This document shows positions 1-53,973 of a stretch of DNA of 64,000 nt, one piece after another (position 1 is the stretch's first letter; the number at the start of each line of letters is the position of its first letter). The stretch is from Escherichia coli (GTDB lineage: Bacteria > Pseudomonadota > Gammaproteobacteria > Enterobacterales > Enterobacteriaceae): assembly GCF_013122565.1 (NCBI RefSeq), contig NZ_CP053258.1. The stretch is one strand, 5' to 3'. The translations under genes and the position numbers were made by a program. The notes beneath the pieces were generated by a model. The model saw nothing but the letters and a program-made list of their open reading frames with translations. It made no database searches and was not told where the DNA came from.

Positions 1-2160
1 GTTCGCCACACGAGTATTCTCTGCGCCTGGTGCTGCAATCAGAACGTTAGTTTCCCCCAGCGATTGCCCCAGGGTAATGCCCTGTGAATGGGCAACTAAA
101 CTGCCTGAAAGAGCGTAGTTCAGTTGTTGTTGACTGCCGTTATCGCTGTAGTTGTAGCCCACTCGGGCATCCGCAAACGCCCCTTTGTAATCCATGCTGG
201 CGCTACCATTAGCCGTTTTCCCCTCGCTGTTATATCCCTGTTGCACGCTGTAGCTCAGGTTACCGTCATCGAGTAGTGTCTCCGTTAAACCCAGGTTTTG
301 TGTAGTGTGCCCTTCGTTATCGATACTGGTGTTAGAGGTCATCCAGGCGTAATTTTTTTTCCTGGTATAGCTATCATTACTTCTGGGGAGCAACAGATTG
401 AGCGGCAGGGAAAAATTAAGTGCAAACACCTGATCAGCATCAGGTTGACCACGGGACTTACTGTAATTCCAGGAAACCCCTAGCGAGAGATCTTTAATTT
501 GCGTGTTGTAGCCAAACTGTAATAGCCGATCCTGTTGATCGGTATGCCAGTAAGTTTGCTGGCTACCACTTAAATAAAACGAACCGTACTCGCCTAATTG
601 CTGGGAGATATTGACCTGCAGTTTGCCACGTTTGGTGTAAAACAAATTGTAATAACGCGACCACATCGGCGTATCTTCATCATCACCGTCATTAAATTCG
701 TAGCCATCCATATGTTTATACATGGTGTCGGAAAGGGTGTAGAAACCCGACGTCGAATAGCGATAGCCCATCAATTGAAAGTTAGTACCCAATTGGTTGA
801 GCGTTTTGGCATACAGAAAACGATATGACTGACCTTTATGTTCGCTTTGGTCTGCCAGCGTACTCTTCGCCTGGGTCACATCGAACGAAATTGCTCCGAA
901 ATCGCCGAGGTTAAATCCCAGACCAAACATGGCGGCACGGTAATATTCAGCATATTGTCCACCACCATACCAGGTCGTTCCCCACGGTCCGCCCCACTGC
1001 AACGTGGCCTGGGCAAATTTGCTCTCCTGCTGTTCATTAGTATTGGTTCTGTATTTCGCCAGTGTCACCGCGTATTTGATTCGCCCCTGACGCTGGAGTA
1101 ATGGCACGCTGGAAAAGGGTACGCTGTAGCTATTGACGCTGCCGTCCGCTTCTTTGATTTCAACTAACAAATCACCGCTCGACGACGTGGAATAGAGATC
1201 ACTAATTTCAAAAGCACCAGGCGATACATAAGTTTGGTAAATGGTGTAACCATTTTGCTTAATCGTTATCTGGGCATTGCTTTTGGCGATACCACGCACC
1301 ACAGGCGCAAACCCTTTCAGGCTGTCTGGCAGCATGTTGTCATCTGACGCCAGCTGCACACCACGAAAGCTGACACTATCGAAAAAATCGCCTGCAGTAT
1401 AATCATCACCTACGGTCAGTTCGCCTTTCAGAGGAATAACCGCCCGTTGCAAATAGCTGCTGAGATTCTTCCATTCTGCGGTTTGGCCACTACTACGACT
1501 CCATGTTGAATTGTTGCGCAATCTCCATGGGCCTAAATTAACGCCACTGTTTAAATTCAGAAAATAGCTGTCGCCAGAATCACTGTCTGCGCTGCTATGA
1601 ATAGTGTTAGCCCCGCTAAACGAATATCCCAGTAATAGCGCGTTGATCCCTTCATCCCAACGTTCAGGGGGGACATAACCACGGGCATTACTTTTGATGG
1701 CAATTTGCGGTACTGAAATTTCCAGACGGAGTTTATTCACATTAAAAGTTACGCTGGCATCCGGAATAATCTCCGCCAATGGCGCACACGCTTGTTTGTC
1801 CAGTTGTTTAAAAGCCGGAAACGCATCAGTATTCACACCCATTGCATCCAGGCTTTCAGTCGTCAAACAGGCGGCAATCCCCTTCTCTGGCGTTATCTCA
1901 ACAAAATTGACGTTGCGCGTATCTACAATTGTCTGATTCAGAACAATATCGACTCGATAAACCCCTGGCGTTATTTTTTGCCCTTTTTCGAAACGGGACA
2001 AATCGGCCACCATTGAGGGATCATCTTTGAAAAAAGCTGGATCGAACCAGGTTTCAGCTTGTGCATTGAACGCTGCCGACACAAACACCACCAGCCCACC
2101 AATAAACGATGGCACTCCTCCAGAGCATAACAGGCTGTGTTGTCGGTGAGTTCTATACAT
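1..2160 (-). CDS. elfC: Fimbrial outer-membrane usher ElfC (YcbS); partial, 720 N-terminal codons present, 3' end lies beyond window start
   Basis: Reverse-strand frame read open from ATG at 2160 (MYRTHRQHSLLSSGGVPSFIGG...) to position 1; sits directly downstream of chaperone and subunit genes; only short ORFs on the opposite strand. Confidence 0.85.
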   Translation of the reverse strand, partial: MYRTHRQHSLLCSGGVPSFIGGLVVFVSAAFNAQAETWFDPAFFKDDPSMVADLSRFEKGQKITPGVYRVDIVLNQTIVDTRNVNFVEITPEKGIAACLTTESLDAMGVNTDAFPAFKQLDKQACAPLAEIIPDASVTFNVNKLRLEISVPQIAIKSNARGYVPPERWDEGINALLLGYSFSGANTIHSSADSDSGDSYFLNLNSGVNLGPWRLRNNSTWSRSSGQTAEWKNLSSYLQRAVIPLKGELTVGDDYTAGDFFDSVSFRGVQLASDDNMLPDSLKGFAPVVRGIAKSNAQITIKQNGYTIYQTYVSPGAFEISDLYSTSSSGDLLVEIKEADGSVNSYSVPFSSVPLLQRQGRIKYAVTLAKYRTNTNEQQESKFAQATLQWGGPWGTTWYGGGQYAEYYRAAMFGLGFNLGDFGAISFDVTQAKSTLADQSEHKGQSYRFLYAKTLNQLGTNFQLMGYRYSTSGFYTLSDTMYKHMDGYEFNDGDDEDTPMWSRYYNLFYTKRGKLQVNISQQLGEYGSFYLSGSQQTYWHTDQQDRLLQFGYNTQIKDLSLGVSWNYSKSRGQPDADQVFALNFSLPLNLLLPRSNDSYTRKKNYAWMTSNTSIDNEGHTTQNLGLTETLLDDGNLSYSVQQGYNSEGKTANGSASMDYKGAFADARVGYNYSDNGSQQQLNYALSGSLVAHSQGITLGQSLGETNVLIAAPGAENTRVAN

Positions 2161-2184
2161 CTCGCTCTCTTAACTGAAGACGTC

Positions 2185-2886
2185 TTACGATTTACAGTTG
2201 AGTTGCGGCGTTTCCGCCCCGTAGTCATTGATAGTTCGGTACGTTACGCTGCTGCTTTGTGCTCCCTTTGGCAGAGAGAATTGGTATTTATCAAAGGGAG
2301 AAATCATTTGATTTTTAACTACTTTTCCACCAATTTTCAGGTCTGTCAGGGTAATGAAATAAGGTGTTGGGTTACTGACCGTAACCATGTCAGCTGACGA
2401 AGTGCAACGCAGTTTCGCCGGAGCCTCGGCTAAGGGATACGCTAAACCTTTTGGTCGCCAGAAAAGTTTGATGACGCTTTGTGTGGCAATCTTCAGGGTA
2501 TTTCCCTCTTCCCGCTTCGTTGTTGAAGGGACTGCCCGTACGCTAGTGAAGAAAAGGGTTTCTCTGTCTTTCGGCAACGGCGCGCCAATGTACATAATGC
2601 GTAACAGATTCTCATTTGCCGGATTCAGCACAAATAGCGGTGGTGTAATAATAAAGTCTGCTGATTTTTTATTATCTGGGGTCATCACCCATGACTGAAT
2701 AAGATAAGGAACATCCGGACTGGTGTTACGTACACCCAGTGAAATTTGCTCTTCACCTTCTGAATAAACAAGACGTGTTGCTGCAAGTCCAATCCCGCCT
2801 TTACCTGCCGCCCATGCGGATGAGCAGCTGAGCAATATTGCCGTTAAACTTACGGTCACAATTCCCTTTGTTATGCAAGTTTTCAT
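2185..2886 (-). CDS. elfD: Periplasmic fimbrial chaperone ElfD (YcbR)
   Basis: 233-aa ORF with signal peptide and PapD-like chaperone sequence (…RIMYIGAPLPKDRETLFF…). Confidence 0.9.
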   Translation of the reverse strand: MKTCITKGIVTVSLTAILLSCSSAWAAGKGGIGLAATRLVYSEGEEQISLGVRNTSPDVPYLIQSWVMTPDNKKSADFIITPPLFVLNPANENLLRIMYIGAPLPKDRETLFFTSVRAVPSTTKREEGNTLKIATQSVIKLFWRPKGLAYPLAEAPAKLRCTSSADMVTVSNPTPYFITLTDLKIGGKVVKNQMISPFDKYQFSLPKGAQSSSVTYRTINDYGAETPQLNCKS

Positions 2887-2968
2887 AAATAGTCACTCTT
2901 AAAAAATATGAATATCCCCTCCAGAACACTGGAGGGGTACTAATTAATAAAACAATTAATGAGTTCTA

Positions 2969-3508
2969 TTAATAATAGTTAATATGGAAATTTGTTACCG
3001 CATTCACATTACCAGAAGTCGCTTTCCCCGTAGCGATATAATCAACTTTAAAAGTCAACGTCTGATCTCCATCTTGCAACAAAATGTTCCCGGTTTCTGT
3101 GTCTGGCGTGATGGCCGTTCTACCATCATTCATATACATTTGCAGGGCCACGTTTGTAGCAGCATCAGATGAGGCCTGGTTAGCAAACGCTGTAATCTGA
3201 GTAGTATCCGCAGTGCCATTAAAGGTGAACGTTGCATTTTTTGTTACGGTAGTATCACAATCTTTTAATTCAATTGGCACATCAGTTTGCACGCCAGAAA
3301 CCTGACCATTGGTTTGCAACTTCGTGGCACTAACATCTGGCAAAGTCACCACGGAATCTTTCGTCGCAGCGACCAGAGTACAAGCTGGAGCAATAACTTT
3401 ACCATTAAATGTTACTGAGCCATCCGTGATAGCATTATCATCAGCAGCCATAACGCTGGACGTTGCACATACCACAGTTATAAACGCCGTCAATACACTT
3501 TTTTTCAT
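2969..3508 (-). CDS. elfA: Fimbrial major subunit ElfA (YcbQ)
   Basis: ORF 2969..3517; start placed at MKKSVLTAFITVVCATSSVMA signal peptide (179 aa); fimbrillin-like. Confidence 0.88.
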   Translation of the reverse strand: MKKSVLTAFITVVCATSSVMAADDNAITDGSVTFNGKVIAPACTLVAATKDSVVTLPDVSATKLQTNGQVSGVQTDVPIELKDCDTTVTKNATFTFNGTADTTQITAFANQASSDAATNVALQMYMNDGRTAITPDTETGNILLQDGDQTLTFKVDYIATGKATSGNVNAVTNFHINYY

Positions 3509-4439: not shown

Positions 4440-5391
4440 CATCATTAAACTGGCGCTGGCGGGATTGCTTAGCGTCTCTACGATTGTGGTTGCTGCAGAA
4501 TCCTCGCCTGAAGCGTTAAGGATTGGCTATCAGAAAAGCAATATCAGTTCTGTGCTGGCGAAAAATTACCAAATGCTGGAAAAACGCTATCCGCAAACAA
4601 AAATCTCGTGGGTGGAGTTTCCCGCGGGACCGCAAATGTTGGAAGCGTTAAACGTTGGCAGTATTGATCTCGGCAGTACCGGGGATATTCCGCCAATCTT
4701 TGCCCAGGCTGCCGGGGCTGATTTGGTATATGTGGGCGTCGAGCCACCGAAGCCCAAAGCCGAAGTGATTCTGGTGGCAGAAAACAGCCCGATCAAAACC
4801 GTAGCCGATCTTAAAGGTCACAAAGTTGCCTTTCAGAAAGGTTCCAGTTCACACAACCTTTTACTGCGTGCACTGCGTCAGGCCGGACTTAAGTTTACCG
4901 ATATACAACCCACTTACCTGACACCCGCTGATGCCCGCGCCGCGTTCCAGCAAGGTAACGTTGACGCCTGGGCTATCTGGGATCCCTACTACTCTGCTGC
5001 ATTATTACAGGGCGGCGTGCGGGTGTTGAAAGACGGCACCGATCTCAATCAAACCGGATCGTTTTATCTGGCAGCTCGCCCCTATGCAGAAAAAAACGGC
5101 GCTTTTATTCAGGGCGTACTGGCAACTTTCAGCAAGGCTGATGCGTTAACTCGCAGCCAGCGTGAGCAAAGCATCGCTTTACTGGCCAAAACAATGGGTT
5201 TACCGGCACCGGTGATTGCCTCGTATCTGGATCATCGTCCTCCCACCACCATCAAACCGGTGAGCGCTGAAGTTGCCGCCTTACAGCAGCAAACGGCAGA
5301 TCTGTTTTATGAAAACCGTCTGGTGCCGAAAAAAGTCGATATTCGCCAGCGCATCTGGCAGCCCACTCAACTGGAAGGAAAACAATTATGA
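4432..5391 (+). CDS. ssuA: Aliphatic sulfonate ABC transporter periplasmic binding protein SsuA
   Basis: ORF 4390..5391; start chosen at [21 protein letters not shown] signal peptide (319 aa); overlaps ssuE stop by 8 nt. Confidence 0.93.
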
Positions 5392-50943: not shown

Positions 50944-51534
50944 TTATAGTGCATCTACCATATCCCGTACCTGAGATAATAACGACTGATAATAGCTCGC
51001 ATGAAGTTCTTGCCCATCGAATACCACTGTATTACACAAGAAAGTGACATCGGCATCTTCAATACCAAGATAACTGCACATATTTATCAAATAATCGCTT
51101 ATATTTTTTTCCCAGCCCATCTGGACAAATGATTCTTTGTCTCCTCCAACCAGCGCCACCCAACGAACTTTATTGAATGGTAATTTGTGCCCATCTCCAT
51201 AAGCCAGCCCATTATTCCATACTCTGTCAATATATCCTTTTAGCATTGCCGGGAAGCTGTACCACCAGAGAGGAAAAACCACCACTAACGTGTCATGTTC
51301 AAGCAGCTCTGAATAAAGCTGATGAACCTCTGGAGAATAACGTTTATCCATATTCTTCCAGTCTGGTTCATCTTCTGGCGTCATCACCGGGTTGAAATTA
51401 CGCCGATATAAATCGAGTTCCGTCACCTGTATTTTCCGCTCCATTGCCCGCTGATGGATCGCATCAGCAATATGTGCGGTCAATGAATCATGACGAGGAT
51501 GGGCCCATACCAAATAAATACGTTCAGACTGCAT
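50944..51534 (-). CDS. ycaK: Flavodoxin-like NAD(P)H dehydrogenase (quinone)-family protein YcaK
   Basis: 196-aa ORF MQSERIYLVWAHPRHDSLTAHIADAIHQRAMERK…. Confidence 0.88.
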   Translation of the reverse strand: MQSERIYLVWAHPRHDSLTAHIADAIHQRAMERKIQVTELDLYRRNFNPVMTPEDEPDWKNMDKRYSPEVHQLYSELLEHDTLVVVFPLWWYSFPAMLKGYIDRVWNNGLAYGDGHKLPFNKVRWVALVGGDKESFVQMGWEKNISDYLINMCSYLGIEDADVTFLCNTVVFDGQELHASYYQSLLSQVRDMVDAL

Positions 51535-51583
51535 AATTTTACCTCCACGTTAAGTTCTGGAGCGCACTTTACGCAGGCGGCAT

Positions 51584-51604
51584 AATCATGTAAACGTGAT
51601 GATT
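51584..51604. promoter_or_regulatory. Interrupted dyad in ycaK-ycaN divergent promoter region (candidate LysR-type operator)
   Basis: AATCAT-gtaaacgtg-ATGATT (6-N9-6 perfect inverted repeat) 30 nt upstream of ycaN start and 50 nt upstream of ycaK start. Confidence 0.3.
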
Positions 51605-51633
51605 CAGGATGAGTTAATGAAGGATTTTCACTA

Positions 51634-52542
51634 ATGCGGATGAATATGTCTGACTTTGCCACTTTCTTTGCTGTGGCCCGTAATCAAAGCTTTCGTGCAG
51701 CGGGCGATGAGTTAGGCTTATCCTCGTCCGCCATTAGCCATAGTATTAAAACACTGGAACAACGTCTTAAAATTCGCTTATTCAATCGGACAACCCGAAG
51801 CGTATCGTTAACGGAAGCGGGTTCTAATCTCTATGAACGATTGCGCCCAGCTTTCGACGAAATTCAGATCATGTTAGATGAAATGAATGATTTTCGTCTG
51901 ACACCGACAGGAACGCTCAAAATCAATGCCGCCCGGATAGCTGCACGTATATTTTTAATGCCTTTACTGGTTGGTTTCACACGTGAATATCCTGATATTA
52001 AAGTCGAGCTCACAACTGACGACTCTCTTATCGATATCGTCCAGCAGGGCTTTGACGCTGGCGTTCGACTTAGTGGCATCGTCGAAAAAGATATGATCAG
52101 CGTGGCGATCGGCCCGCCAGTGAAATTATGTGTAGCAGCAACGCCAGAGTACTTTACAAGATATGGCAAACCCCGCCATCCTCATGATCTGCTTAATCAT
52201 CAATGTGTTGTTTTTCGTTATCCCAGCGGTAAACCTTTCCACTGGCAATTTGCAAAGGATCTGGAAATTGCTGTCGCAGGGAATATCATTCTGGATGATG
52301 TTGATGCTGAACTGGATGCCGTTTTGATGGGGGCTGGTATCGGGTATCTGCTCTATGAACAGATCAAGGAGTACCTTGATACCGGTCGTTTAGAATGTGT
52401 ACTGGAAGACTGGATCACAGAGCGTCCAGGCTTCCAGGTCTATTACCCAAACCGCCAGTATATGTCCTGCGGCTTGCGCGCATTTCTCGATTATGTAAAA
52501 ACGGGCCAGATCTGCCAGAGTCAGCGTCACCGACCACAATAA
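51634..52542 (+). CDS. ycaN: LysR-family transcriptional regulator YcaN
   Basis: 302-aa ORF with N-terminal HTH (FRAAGDELGLSSSAISHSIKTLEQRLKIRLFNRTTRSVSLTEAG); divergent from ycaK. Confidence 0.9.
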   Translation: MRMNMSDFATFFAVARNQSFRAAGDELGLSSSAISHSIKTLEQRLKIRLFNRTTRSVSLTEAGSNLYERLRPAFDEIQIMLDEMNDFRLTPTGTLKINAARIAARIFLMPLLVGFTREYPDIKVELTTDDSLIDIVQQGFDAGVRLSGIVEKDMISVAIGPPVKLCVAATPEYFTRYGKPRHPHDLLNHQCVVFRYPSGKPFHWQFAKDLEIAVAGNIILDDVDAELDAVLMGAGIGYLLYEQIKEYLDTGRLECVLEDWITERPGFQVYYPNRQYMSCGLRAFLDYVKTGQICQSQRHRPQ

Positions 52543-53973
52543 TTATTTACTATTCGCTTTACGCGCCAGCAGCGGGAATATCAGTCCTAATCCTACCAGC
52601 ACAAACGGCGTTGCAACATTCAGCGCCAACTGGAAGGTCCACTCTGCAGTGAAGGCTTCCATTTTCGGGAAGATCCCCGTCAAACAGGCAAAGGCGGTAA
52701 AGGCAAAACACCAAATCCCGACGGTCATTGCCAGAGACTTATTACGAATAAAGACATATTCTGGTTTATATTTCTGCGCCAGGCGAACGACTGCAATAAA
52801 TGCAACAAATACCCATAAATAACGCAGCGGCATCACTACCGAGTTAAGATTCAACAGCCATTTATAGAGATTGTTCATATCACCGATGCCGAGAGTCGGC
52901 AGCATAATCAGGATCGCCACCAGCACCAGGGTCAGAAAATAGCCATTAACGGGCGTACCAGAAGCGTTGGTACGACATAAACTGGCAGGAATATATTTGC
53001 TGTCAGCGTCGCCTAATAGCACTTTAAGCGGGGCATCAATCGAGAATACCAGCGCAGCTACTTGTCCCAGGGTATTCGCAATGGCGTAAATCACCATTAA
53101 AGTATTCCCCATGTTGTAATACTCGCCCAGCTTCTGAAAGGCGTAATACTGACCGTTAGTCATTAAGTCATCCGGGATATTACGCGAGTCAAACATCATT
53201 CCCATCGCCAGTGAGCCCAGAATGGCACAAACCGCAACCATCACCGCCAGGCATAGCATCCCTTTTGGAAATTCTTTTCCTGGGTTGCGCGTTTGATTAA
53301 CGTAAGGAGAAATCTTCTCTGCTCCGCCAACCGCGAAAACCAGCATTGAAATAGTGGTAATGTAGGTAAAGTCGATATGAGGAATGAACGTTTCCCAGGT
53401 AATGTTTGTGGTCGCAATATGCACTTCAGTAATCGCAGGCGCGGTTACTGCCATCGCCACATACAGGAGCGACATAACAAACATCGCAATCCCTGCCACA
53501 GAACCGACGATTTTCAGCGATTTCATACCGCGTGAAGCAACCCACATAAAGAAGATAAACAGCACCAGCGTTAACCCCTGTAACGCTACGACTGAATATT
53601 CTTTGATTAGCGAACCGTCGCCTTTCATCGCCCAACCGAGCGCAATCAGAATTGCCTGGGGTTTTTGTGCCAGATAGGGAATATGCACCACCCAGTAGGT
53701 CCACGCGGCGAGATAAGCCAGTCCGGGTCCCATCGTGTGTTTAATCCAGGTACTGACCCCGCCCTTCCCATCTTTGAAGGTCGAGCCTAACTGTCCAACA
53801 ATTAGCGCATAAGGTGTGAAATAGAGCGCAAAGATAAACACCCATGAAAAAACAACCACCAGCCCCTGGTTGGCATAGTTATTAACAACATTGCCAAAAC
53901 CCCAGACAGTGATAAAAGACATCAGCGCAATGTTGTACCATCGCAGCTGTTTTTCCTGAACATTCCCAGCCAT
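52543..53973 (-). CDS. ycaM: APC-superfamily amino acid/polyamine transporter YcaM
   Basis: ORF 52543..54165; start placed at MAGNVQEKQLRWYNIALMSF (476 aa) with AAGGA SD upstream; polytopic membrane protein. Confidence 0.85.
   Translation of the reverse strand: MAGNVQEKQLRWYNIALMSFITVWGFGNVVNNYANQGLVVVFSWVFIFALYFTPYALIVGQLGSTFKDGKGGVSTWIKHTMGPGLAYLAAWTYWVVHIPYLAQKPQAILIALGWAMKGDGSLIKEYSVVALQGLTLVLFIFFMWVASRGMKSLKIVGSVAGIAMFVMSLLYVAMAVTAPAITEVHIATTNITWETFIPHIDFTYITTISMLVFAVGGAEKISPYVNQTRNPGKEFPKGMLCLAVMVAVCAILGSLAMGMMFDSRNIPDDLMTNGQYYAFQKLGEYYNMGNTLMVIYAIANTLGQVAALVFSIDAPLKVLLGDADSKYIPASLCRTNASGTPVNGYFLTLVLVAILIMLPTLGIGDMNNLYKWLLNLNSVVMPLRYLWVFVAFIAVVRLAQKYKPEYVFIRNKSLAMTVGIWCFAFTAFACLTGIFPKMEAFTAEWTFQLALNVATPFVLVGLGLIFPLLARKANSK

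Follow-up and report, generated by a model that had tools for sequence, protein, structure and literature searches.

Gene organization of the ycaK-ycaN locus

The window, i.e. the whole 64-kb stretch of Escherichia coli DNA analysed here, contains the divergent genes ycaK and ycaN (Table 1), whose start codons (ATG at 51534 on the minus strand and at 51634, respectively) border an intergenic region of 99 bp (51535..51633). In K-12 and near-identical E. coli, the RefSeq names are ycaK, ycaN (LysR family) and ycaM, with pflA/pflB on the other side. The ycaK-ycaN module is missing from about 39% of complete E. coli genomes.

The ycaK product contains a Flavodoxin_2 domain (Pfam PF02525, 4e-39), and the solved structures closest to it by sequence are NAD(P)H quinone reductases, NQO1/2 and KefF. 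YcaK is plausibly a candidate NAD(P)H quinone oxidoreductase of flavodoxin-like fold. YcaN is a LysR-type regulator (LTTR), with an N-terminal HTH_1 domain (PF00126, 9e-21, residues 7-63) and a C-terminal LysR_substrate domain (PF03466, 6e-32, residues 91-290), and it gives full-length matches to the LTTR structures 3mz1, 3t1b and 3hhg (7e-30), the last of which we take to be CrgA.

Table 1. Features of the ycaK-ycaN region (window coordinates).
Feature	Position	Strand	Description and basis
ycaK CDS	50944..51534	-	196 aa, Flavodoxin_2 NAD(P)H oxidoreductase; ORF, RefSeq annotation, Pfam
ycaK TSS	51558 (+/-1 nt)	-	Cappable-seq in K-12, transferred to the window
PycaK -10, TAAAGT	51566..51571	-	promoter scan; ACTTTAC invariant in 12/12 species; 7 nt upstream of the mapped TSS
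Alternative candidate ycaN -10 (CATAAT, consensus nATAaT)	51581..51586	+	11/12 species; partial overlap with the left arm of the flagged dyad; putative
Conserved block	51582..51636	.	about 55 bp; presumed full extent of YcaN contact plus both core promoters; per-column information content
Flagged dyad, AATCAT-gtaaacgtg-ATGATT	51584..51604	.	sequence; centred at about -36 from the ycaK TSS
Strain-private SNP	51588	.	A in this strain against C in other E. coli and in most genera; completes the palindrome
PycaK -35, TTTACA	51589..51594	-	promoter scan; equals TGTAAA in the spacer of the flagged dyad; invariant in 12/12 species
Candidate ycaN -10 (GATGAT in E. coli, TAGTAT in other genera)	51598..51603	+	conserved column in 10/12 species; overlaps the right arm of the flagged dyad; putative
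Conserved dyad, TTAATGA-N7-TCACTAA	51614..51634	.	T-N11-A (T51618, A51630); proposed primary YcaN site
ycaN CDS	51634..52542	+	302 aa, LysR-type regulator; ORF, annotation, Pfam

A strain-specific palindrome

The inverted repeat AATCAT-N9-ATGATT lies between ycaK and ycaN at 51584..51604, where a preliminary description of this DNA had placed it, with its centre (51594) indeed 40 nt away from the start codon of ycaN and 60 nt away from that of ycaK. When the 99-bp gap is shuffled with its dinucleotide composition kept, 1.8% of shuffles contain one or more perfect 6-bp inverted repeats with a spacer of exactly N9, and this share rises to 15% if spacers of 5-15 are admitted and to 26% with spacers of 0-20; over the whole window, perfect 6-bp inverted repeats occur at a density of 0.46 per 99 bp. 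The palindrome is real, and it is no more than would be expected by chance.

Across the gap, a single difference separates the window from K-12 MG1655, namely A instead of C at 51588 within the left arm, and it is because of this strain-private A that the palindrome is perfect; the K-12 version, AATCCT-N9-ATGATT, has 5/6 pairs. No complete E. coli genome among the 3,327 having the locus contained the 71-bp core of the gap as it reads in the window, and 3,164 of these 3,327 genomes were 100% identical to a query with the C allele. Strains AH04 and E2865 have C at 51588, as does strain EC-10, whose left arm is altered at one more position (51584 A to C). The column is also C in 10 of 11 orthologues from other genera. 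Arm pairing reaches 6/6 in this strain only, against 5/6 in K-12 and 2-5/6 in the 11 other-genus loci, for which the consensus at this place is AATTCT-N9-AGTATT (5/6 pairs). A T-N11-A motif is not found at the centre of the dyad, the bases at +/-6 from 51594 being A/T in the window, C/T in K-12 and, in the majority of other genera, C/G, and no conserved T-N11-A was found within 51582..51606. The flagged dyad has neither the central T-N11-A of LTTR sites nor a symmetry that is kept among strains and orthologues.

It appears highly improbable that this dyad serves a different regulator (Nac, CRP, FNR or ArcA, for example). The locus adjoins pfl, ycaK is stated in the literature to be a predicted Nac target, and TGTAA-N6 weakly resembles, by eye, a CRP half-site. 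Consensus sites are ATA-N9-TAT for Nac, TTGAT-N4-ATCAA for FNR and TGTGA-N6-TCACA for CRP, but inspection of the gap by eye revealed neither the Nac nor the FNR consensus, nor a full CRP site, and that one statement of prediction is all that was found in the literature on a link between Nac and ycaK.

Conservation of the intergenic region and the ycaK promoter

A scan of species-representative genomes with YcaN gave 11 clear orthologues at 59-75% identity and about 70 paralogues near 40%. The orthologues are from Limnobaculum, Rahnella, Cedecea (two), Serratia proteamaculans (two), Enterobacter sp. (two), Symbiopectobacterium (two) and one assembly labelled Caballeronia; E. coli and its close relatives (Escherichia, Shigella) are not among the scan results, and the resulting footprint is one without intermediate distances. 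All 11 orthologous loci feature a divergent ycaK orthologue (50-57% identity) across a gap of 99-102 bp, and none of the paralogues has one beside it.

Twelve gaps, i.e. the window and the 11 orthologous loci, were aligned and information content was computed per column. Conservation is near-random at 51535..51565 and 51574..51581. A fold on the minus strand with z = -2.28 lies mostly upstream of the mapped ycaK start, in a variable stretch. The invariant blocks are ACTTTACG at 51566-73, ATAaT at 51582-86, TGTAAA at 51589-94, TT at 51603-04, AT at 51609-10, TAnTGA at 51615-20, a single A at 51624, and TTCACTAATG at 51627-36. The conserved block 51582..51636 has, at about 55 bp, the size of a LysR-type footprint. 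The preliminary description had seen in the LysR-type gene divergent from an oxidoreductase gene the layout of a regulator and its target, and this proposal is supported by the constant divergent partner in 11/11 orthologous loci and by the conservation of some 55 bp of the gap.

A promoter scan of the ycaK strand gave one sigma-70-like site, in which TTTACA and TAAAGT (5/6 and 4/6 matches to consensus, respectively) are separated by 17 bp; across the 12 species both hexamers are invariant, and the spacer is free of indels and variable in sequence. Coordinates on U00096.2 were converted to NC_000913.3 with an offset which we take to be +777, and which puts the ycaK start at 949644, with the ycaK ATG 24 nt further downstream at 949668. 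This offset agrees with the observation that six converted ChIP coordinates fall beside the genes named for them. The start itself was mapped in K-12 by Cappable-seq, on the plus strand, at 948867 of U00096.2 (PMC4782308 Additional file 1). PycaK is a sigma-70 promoter by its spaced hexamers upstream of a mapped 5'-triphosphate end, which lies 7 nt past the -10 element. The TGTAAA within the spacer of the flagged dyad is invariant because it is the ycaK -35 element.

A conserved dyad at the ycaN start codon

LTTR regulatory sites are characterized by high dyad symmetry and a T-N11-A motif and are located near -65, with a weaker activation site over the -35 element and a footprint of 50-60 bp (PMC11495319, PMC2724274). 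A second dyad in the ycaK/ycaN gap, the box TTAATGA-N7-TCACTAA (51614..51634), has these features of a regulatory site. It contains T-N11-A in an interrupted dyad, and its centre at 51624 corresponds to -66 from the ycaK TSS (+/-1 nt, from the coordinate conversion), 30 bp from the centre of the flagged dyad on the ycaN side. It is located in the divergent gap over the ycaN promoter or leader, ends on the A of the ycaN ATG, and has half-sites that are conserved and tied to the regulator.

Six symmetric pairs of the box are invariant over the 12 species, with one exception in Limnobaculum, and the centre varies. The arms pair at 7/8 positions in E. coli, the mismatch 51617/51631 being present in every species. 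The extended motif TTANTGA-N7-TCANTAA occurs once in the window and once per locus in L002-L011, always in the homologous place, and L001 is one base off. The bare core TGA-N7-TCA occurs 17 times in the window against about 16 expected, which is chance level, and therefore only the extended motif is informative. Among 18 orthologues and paralogues, dyad symmetry at the box was observed in 77% of cells versus 35-53% in slid controls, with symmetric switches from G:C to A:T.

The box, instead of the flagged dyad, is on this comparison of sequences most likely the primary YcaN operator, for which it is our candidate. The conserved pair T51604-N11-A51616 was considered as a second site and rejected, since it overlaps the box by half a site and the two cannot be occupied simultaneously. 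A second T-N11-A at 15 bp from the box, as in CrgA, was likewise not seen on inspection of the alignment columns.

Two candidate -10 elements are apparent for ycaN (Table 1). An earlier study with NNPP found no ycaN promoter (PMC9308461). The candidate at 51581..51586 has no conserved -35 element. In many paralogues a TAnAAT sequence precedes the box by about 11 nt, and in the ycaN orthologues TAGTAT precedes it by 10 nt; 51598..51603 is favoured because of this similar spacing, and is the probable ycaN -10 element. The perfect 6-N9-6 symmetry of the flagged dyad is an accident of two core promoter elements and an A/T-rich flank, completed by one private A at 51588. In itself it carries no weight, and it illustrates that a perfect short dyad in one genome can arise from a single SNP.

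That the flagged dyad might nevertheless be the primary YcaN operator, serving both autoregulation and ycaK activation, must be judged quite improbable. It does sit in a regulator-target gap within the conserved 55-bp block, and its pairs A51584/T51604, T51586/A51602 and T51589/A51599, the three outer ones, are fairly well kept. However, not only is its perfect symmetry private to one strain, but the variation within E. coli affects its left arm, and six of the 11 loci from other genera keep only 2-4 of its 6 pairs. Its invariant bases can be put down to the ycaK -35 element, it lacks a central T-N11-A and is statistically ordinary, and a far better conserved T-N11-A dyad is found 30 bp away.

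Paralogues of YcaN and residue 36 of the recognition helix

The register of the box relative to the start codon is shared with distant paralogues. Among 69 paralogous LTTR loci (about 40% identity), 16 have TGA-N7-TCA with its T exactly at -16 from the ATG, as in ycaN, compared to a shuffle expectation of 1.2 loci with a match anywhere in 72 nt (maximum 5). These box-bearing paralogues span the alpha-, beta-, gamma- and deltaproteobacteria. The genes divergent from them encode aldo-keto reductases, cupins, CMD/AhpD-like proteins and Zn-dependent alcohol dehydrogenases.

Presence of the box correlates with the residue at position 36 of the recognition helix (S-A-[LIM]-S-H), which is His in 27/27 box-bearing proteins; in 53 proteins without the box it is Gln in 33, His in 9 and Tyr in 5. 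The half-sites differ between these classes at the same offset, with ...TTATGAG-N5-TTCATgAATG for His36, TTATAAG or TCATTAG for Gln36, and TTATAT...ATCAAT for Leu36. For the paralogues alone, His36 is associated with G(-15)/C(-5) in proportions of 20/6 vs 5/37 (Fisher p = 8e-8, a value not corrected for shared ancestry).

A tentative generalization is that YcaN may belong, as its E. coli representative, to a LysR subfamily spread across the proteobacteria, in which the site would be fixed at -20 to +1, ending on the regulator's own start codon, with a half-site code set by residue 36 (His, TTATGA...TCATAA; Gln, TTATAA/TTATTA; Leu, TTATAT). In this scheme every regulator would have a single small redox or detoxification enzyme as its partner (Flavodoxin_2 reductase, aldo-keto reductase, cupin, AhpD/CMD-like protein or Zn-dependent alcohol dehydrogenase), the two forming a mobile sensor-enzyme cassette. 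If so, sequence would suffice to predict the operators of many uncharacterised LTTRs and, through these, their targets, and biosensors could be built by re-engineering the code.

A dyad that abuts a start codon might also act in RNA, where the leader would form a hairpin that carries the Shine-Dalgarno sequence in its loop and modulates translation of ycaN. The last base of the dyad is the A of the AUG, and orthologues as well as paralogues have a variable centre rich in purines (AAGGA, GAGGG); the arms change together between classes, and one pair alternates between A-T and G-T, the latter G-U in RNA. Even so, we give this idea very little credence. RNAalifold predicted 0 consensus pairs in the box region, the single-sequence fold of the plus strand gave z = -0.44, and no Rfam match was obtained in 51400..51800, on which grounds an RNA element at the gap was rejected. 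Moreover, the stem would be short, AU-rich and broken by the 51617/51631 mismatch in every species, its arms are invariant rather than covarying among orthologues, and the correlation with a DNA-recognition-helix residue has no explanation at the RNA level.

Published genome-wide data on YcaN

The preliminary description presented the gene pair as a small unexplored regulon. This is right only in part: YcaN itself has already been the subject of both ChIP-exo (PMC8464067) and knockout RNA-seq (PMC9068703), neither of which implicates the gap or ycaK. With YcaN-8myc in glucose M9, ChIP-exo yielded six weak peaks (cspE, ynjB, yobF, ung/grcA, rho, yihQ) with signal/noise of 1.06-4.45, none of them at ycaK/ycaN; the sites at yihQ and grcA turn up with several unrelated factors as well, and several other y-LTTRs in the same dataset have a peak at their own gene (PMC8464067). 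The box is absent from the six published peak regions, in which the best matches have 3-4 mismatches of 12, the same as in shuffles. In the ycaN knockout, 702 genes were differentially expressed, with ycaC down and ycaD and focA up, and ycaK is not mentioned as changed in that study (PMC9068703). No TGA-N7-TCA core was found in the ycaC/ycaD gap or upstream of focA. Taken together, the ChIP-exo and RNA-seq results are mild evidence against YcaN acting at the gap under the conditions used, and are compatible with very low YcaN levels.

These data would be accounted for if YcaN did not control ycaK at all, the conserved blocks being core promoters and the ycaN translation start, the dyads incidental, and YcaN either acting elsewhere (ycaC, ycaD, focA) or largely inactive. 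This would also fit with the near-consensus ycaK promoter and its TSS under standard conditions, and with the dispensability of a module absent from so many complete E. coli genomes. We nevertheless consider it unlikely. Signals for translation would not account for half-sites that are invariant and symmetric about a variable, purine-rich centre, and no comparable conservation is seen in the ycaK start region; nor is it explained why the box should be in equal register in distant paralogues and track a residue of the recognition helix. In addition, the proposed alternative targets lack even the core of the box in their upstream regions, the published peaks are weak and several are common to unrelated factors, and the linkage between ycaK and ycaN is strict across genera.

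Proposed mode of regulation

The ycaK/ycaN gap is best read as an ordinary LysR-type divergent promoter. The explanation that we prefer, and hold to be probable, is that it operates as a classical LysR-type bidirectional control region, in which the conserved box is the recognition site of YcaN and ycaK is expressed from a conserved sigma-70 promoter. Transcription of ycaK proceeds from TTTACA (51594..51589) and TAAAGT (51571..51566), 17 bp apart, with a start near 51558. The box, over the ycaN leader and start codon, would provide the high-affinity site for YcaN, and ycaN would be repressed by a YcaN dimer anchored there. Another dimer from that oligomer would contact less symmetric DNA near -36, over the ycaK -35 element and the probable ycaN -10 element. 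Promoters of the "sliding dimer" type are bidirectional, with the regulatory site on the regulator's own promoter or leader (PMC11495319). A ligand, plausibly a quinone or electrophile, would turn on ycaK by this usual route.

The flagged dyad had been put forward as an autoregulatory or activation site. It is not a conserved recognition site, given the private SNP, the poorly kept arms, the missing T-N11-A and a core that is the ycaK -35 element, but its position near -36 means that it may lie in the YcaN footprint, where it would be at most part of a secondary contact region. Its region may constitute a low-symmetry activation site, as suggested by the -36 position and the 30-bp distance to the box; conservation of this region is explained equally well by the ycaK -35 and ycaN -10 elements.

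A further point counts against the proposed control of ycaK: PycaK is fairly good by itself and its TSS was detected without added inducer, so that an activator may be unneeded. If YcaN does bind the box, a one-enzyme ycaK regulon becomes testable with a defined operator, promoter and TSS, and the published ChIP-exo and RNA-seq outcomes can be read as artefacts of non-inducing conditions or low expression.

Comparison with known systems

YcaN shares its family and the logic of a divergent neighbour with other E. coli y-LTTRs (YbdO/CitR, YbhD, YneJ/PtrR, YfiE, YhjC). Several of these differ from it in that ChIP-exo gave a clear peak at the regulator's own promoter or at one next to it (signal/noise of 97 for YbdO and 12.5 for YfiE), whereas YcaN has no peak at ycaK/ycaN and its published candidate targets ycaC and ycaD are without a box.

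A closer parallel in layout is provided by CrgA-mdaB of Neisseria meningitidis, in which a LysR-type regulator is divergent from an NADPH quinone oxidoreductase gene (PMC2724274). CrgA, an octamer, represses its own gene and activates mdaB, and gives a 63-bp footprint comprising two adjacent T-N11-A sites, one over the regulator promoter and one near the -35 element of the target (PMC2724274). The arrangement of a regulator divergent from a candidate quinone oxidoreductase gene is the same in ycaK/ycaN, and YcaN matches 3hhg at 7e-30. By contrast, ycaK/ycaN features the proximal T-N11-A only, with no second one at the expected 15-bp spacing, and the YcaN side of the comparison is known from sequence.

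The canonical "sliding dimer" promoters of the BenM/CbnR/DntR/OccR type differ from ycaK/ycaN in three respects: the half-site of the YcaN box is TTAnTGA, and not for example that of ATAC-N7-GTAT; the box abuts the start codon of the regulator, in a register that is fixed in orthologues and many paralogues; and the ycaK promoter already has near-consensus hexamers. A fixed-register operator that tracks residue 36, beside detoxification enzymes, could help in target prediction and biosensor design, and is still well-known LysR-type regulation. The likeness to BenM, CbnR, DntR and OccR concerns the architecture of the control region, with the ycaK/ycaN box at -66 and a second region at -36, 30 bp apart.

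Distribution of the ycaK-ycaN module

The divergent ycaK-ycaN pair, encoding an NAD(P)H oxidoreductase and a LysR-type regulator (LTTR), forms a module of the E. coli accessory genome: its intergenic region is present in 3,327 of the 5,426 complete genomes of this species, with flank-only matches in about 1,039 further ones. Strain ABW_A19 carries a clean deletion, in which pflA is followed by a 111-bp remnant of the 3′ end of ycaN and then by ycaM. Five copies are plasmid-borne. The best match to the segment among complete E. coli genomes has 99.2% identity (strain AH04) and the majority about 98.5%, and the lineage of the window is therefore absent from this collection.

An assembly labelled Caballeronia sp. 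dw_276 (Burkholderiales) encodes YcaN and YcaK homologs with 72% and 52% identity, respectively, separated by an intergenic region of the Enterobacterales type, with an exact match to the box (the proposed YcaN recognition dyad, TTAATGA-N7-TCACTAA in the window) and both ycaK promoter hexamers. Such sequence features in an assembly of this label point to horizontal transfer, or else to a mislabelled or contaminated assembly. In Symbiopectobacterium ‘North America’, a frameshift close to codon 63 interrupts the ycaN ortholog: its tblastn match falls in two frames and its translation contains stop codons. This locus nevertheless retains the box as well as both promoter blocks, which suggests a recent pseudogene in this symbiont lineage.

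Coordinates of features and loci
Feature	Sequence	Coordinates	Strand
ycaK-ycaN module	window	50944..52542	
Predicted RNA fold, ycaK upstream and leader	window	51530..51600	minus
Pairing partner of ycaK Shine-Dalgarno and AUG	window	around 51575-51590	minus
Adjoining ycaN/ycaM stop codons	window	52542/52543	
Extended-box near-copy in ycaM	window	53146..53166	
Deletion locus (L085)	ABW_A19	4904..5114	
Orthologous locus (L002)	Caballeronia sp. dw_276	1809..3379	
Orthologous locus (L011)	Symbiopectobacterium ‘North America’	2501..3398	
YfeD ChIP-exo site labelled ‘b0900 ycaN’	PMC8464067, Dataset S4	939919-939929	

Other signals at and around the locus

A near-copy of the extended box with one mismatch, ATACTGACCGTTAGTCATTAA, lies well within the ycaM coding sequence. 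It is the sole other near-match in the 64 kb and is probably due to chance. RNA folding of the ycaK strand (-20.6 kcal/mol, z = -2.28) pairs the ycaK Shine-Dalgarno sequence and AUG with a segment located largely upstream of the mapped transcription start; because of this, and because the ycaK leader lacks conservation, the fold is probably irrelevant. Row 12 of the YfeD list in a published ChIP-exo dataset (PMC8464067) assigns a site to ycaN; its coordinate lies about 8 kb away, near serS/dmsA, and the label is likely an annotation slip.

Comparison with other systems

The convergent genes ycaN and ycaM, whose stop codons adjoin with no gap, feature as a pair in an RNA-seq list of convergent ‘excludons’ (PMC12288877). 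A second conserved element, GATTAG-N4-TAnAAT, is common to the 69 paralogous LTTR loci. It occupies roughly positions -45 to -25 relative to the start codon of the respective regulator gene, some 30 bp upstream of the start-proximal box. Often readable as a dyad, GATTA-N7-TAATC, and found whatever the class of the regulator by recognition-helix residue 36, this element probably combines the regulator's own -10 sequence with a second site.
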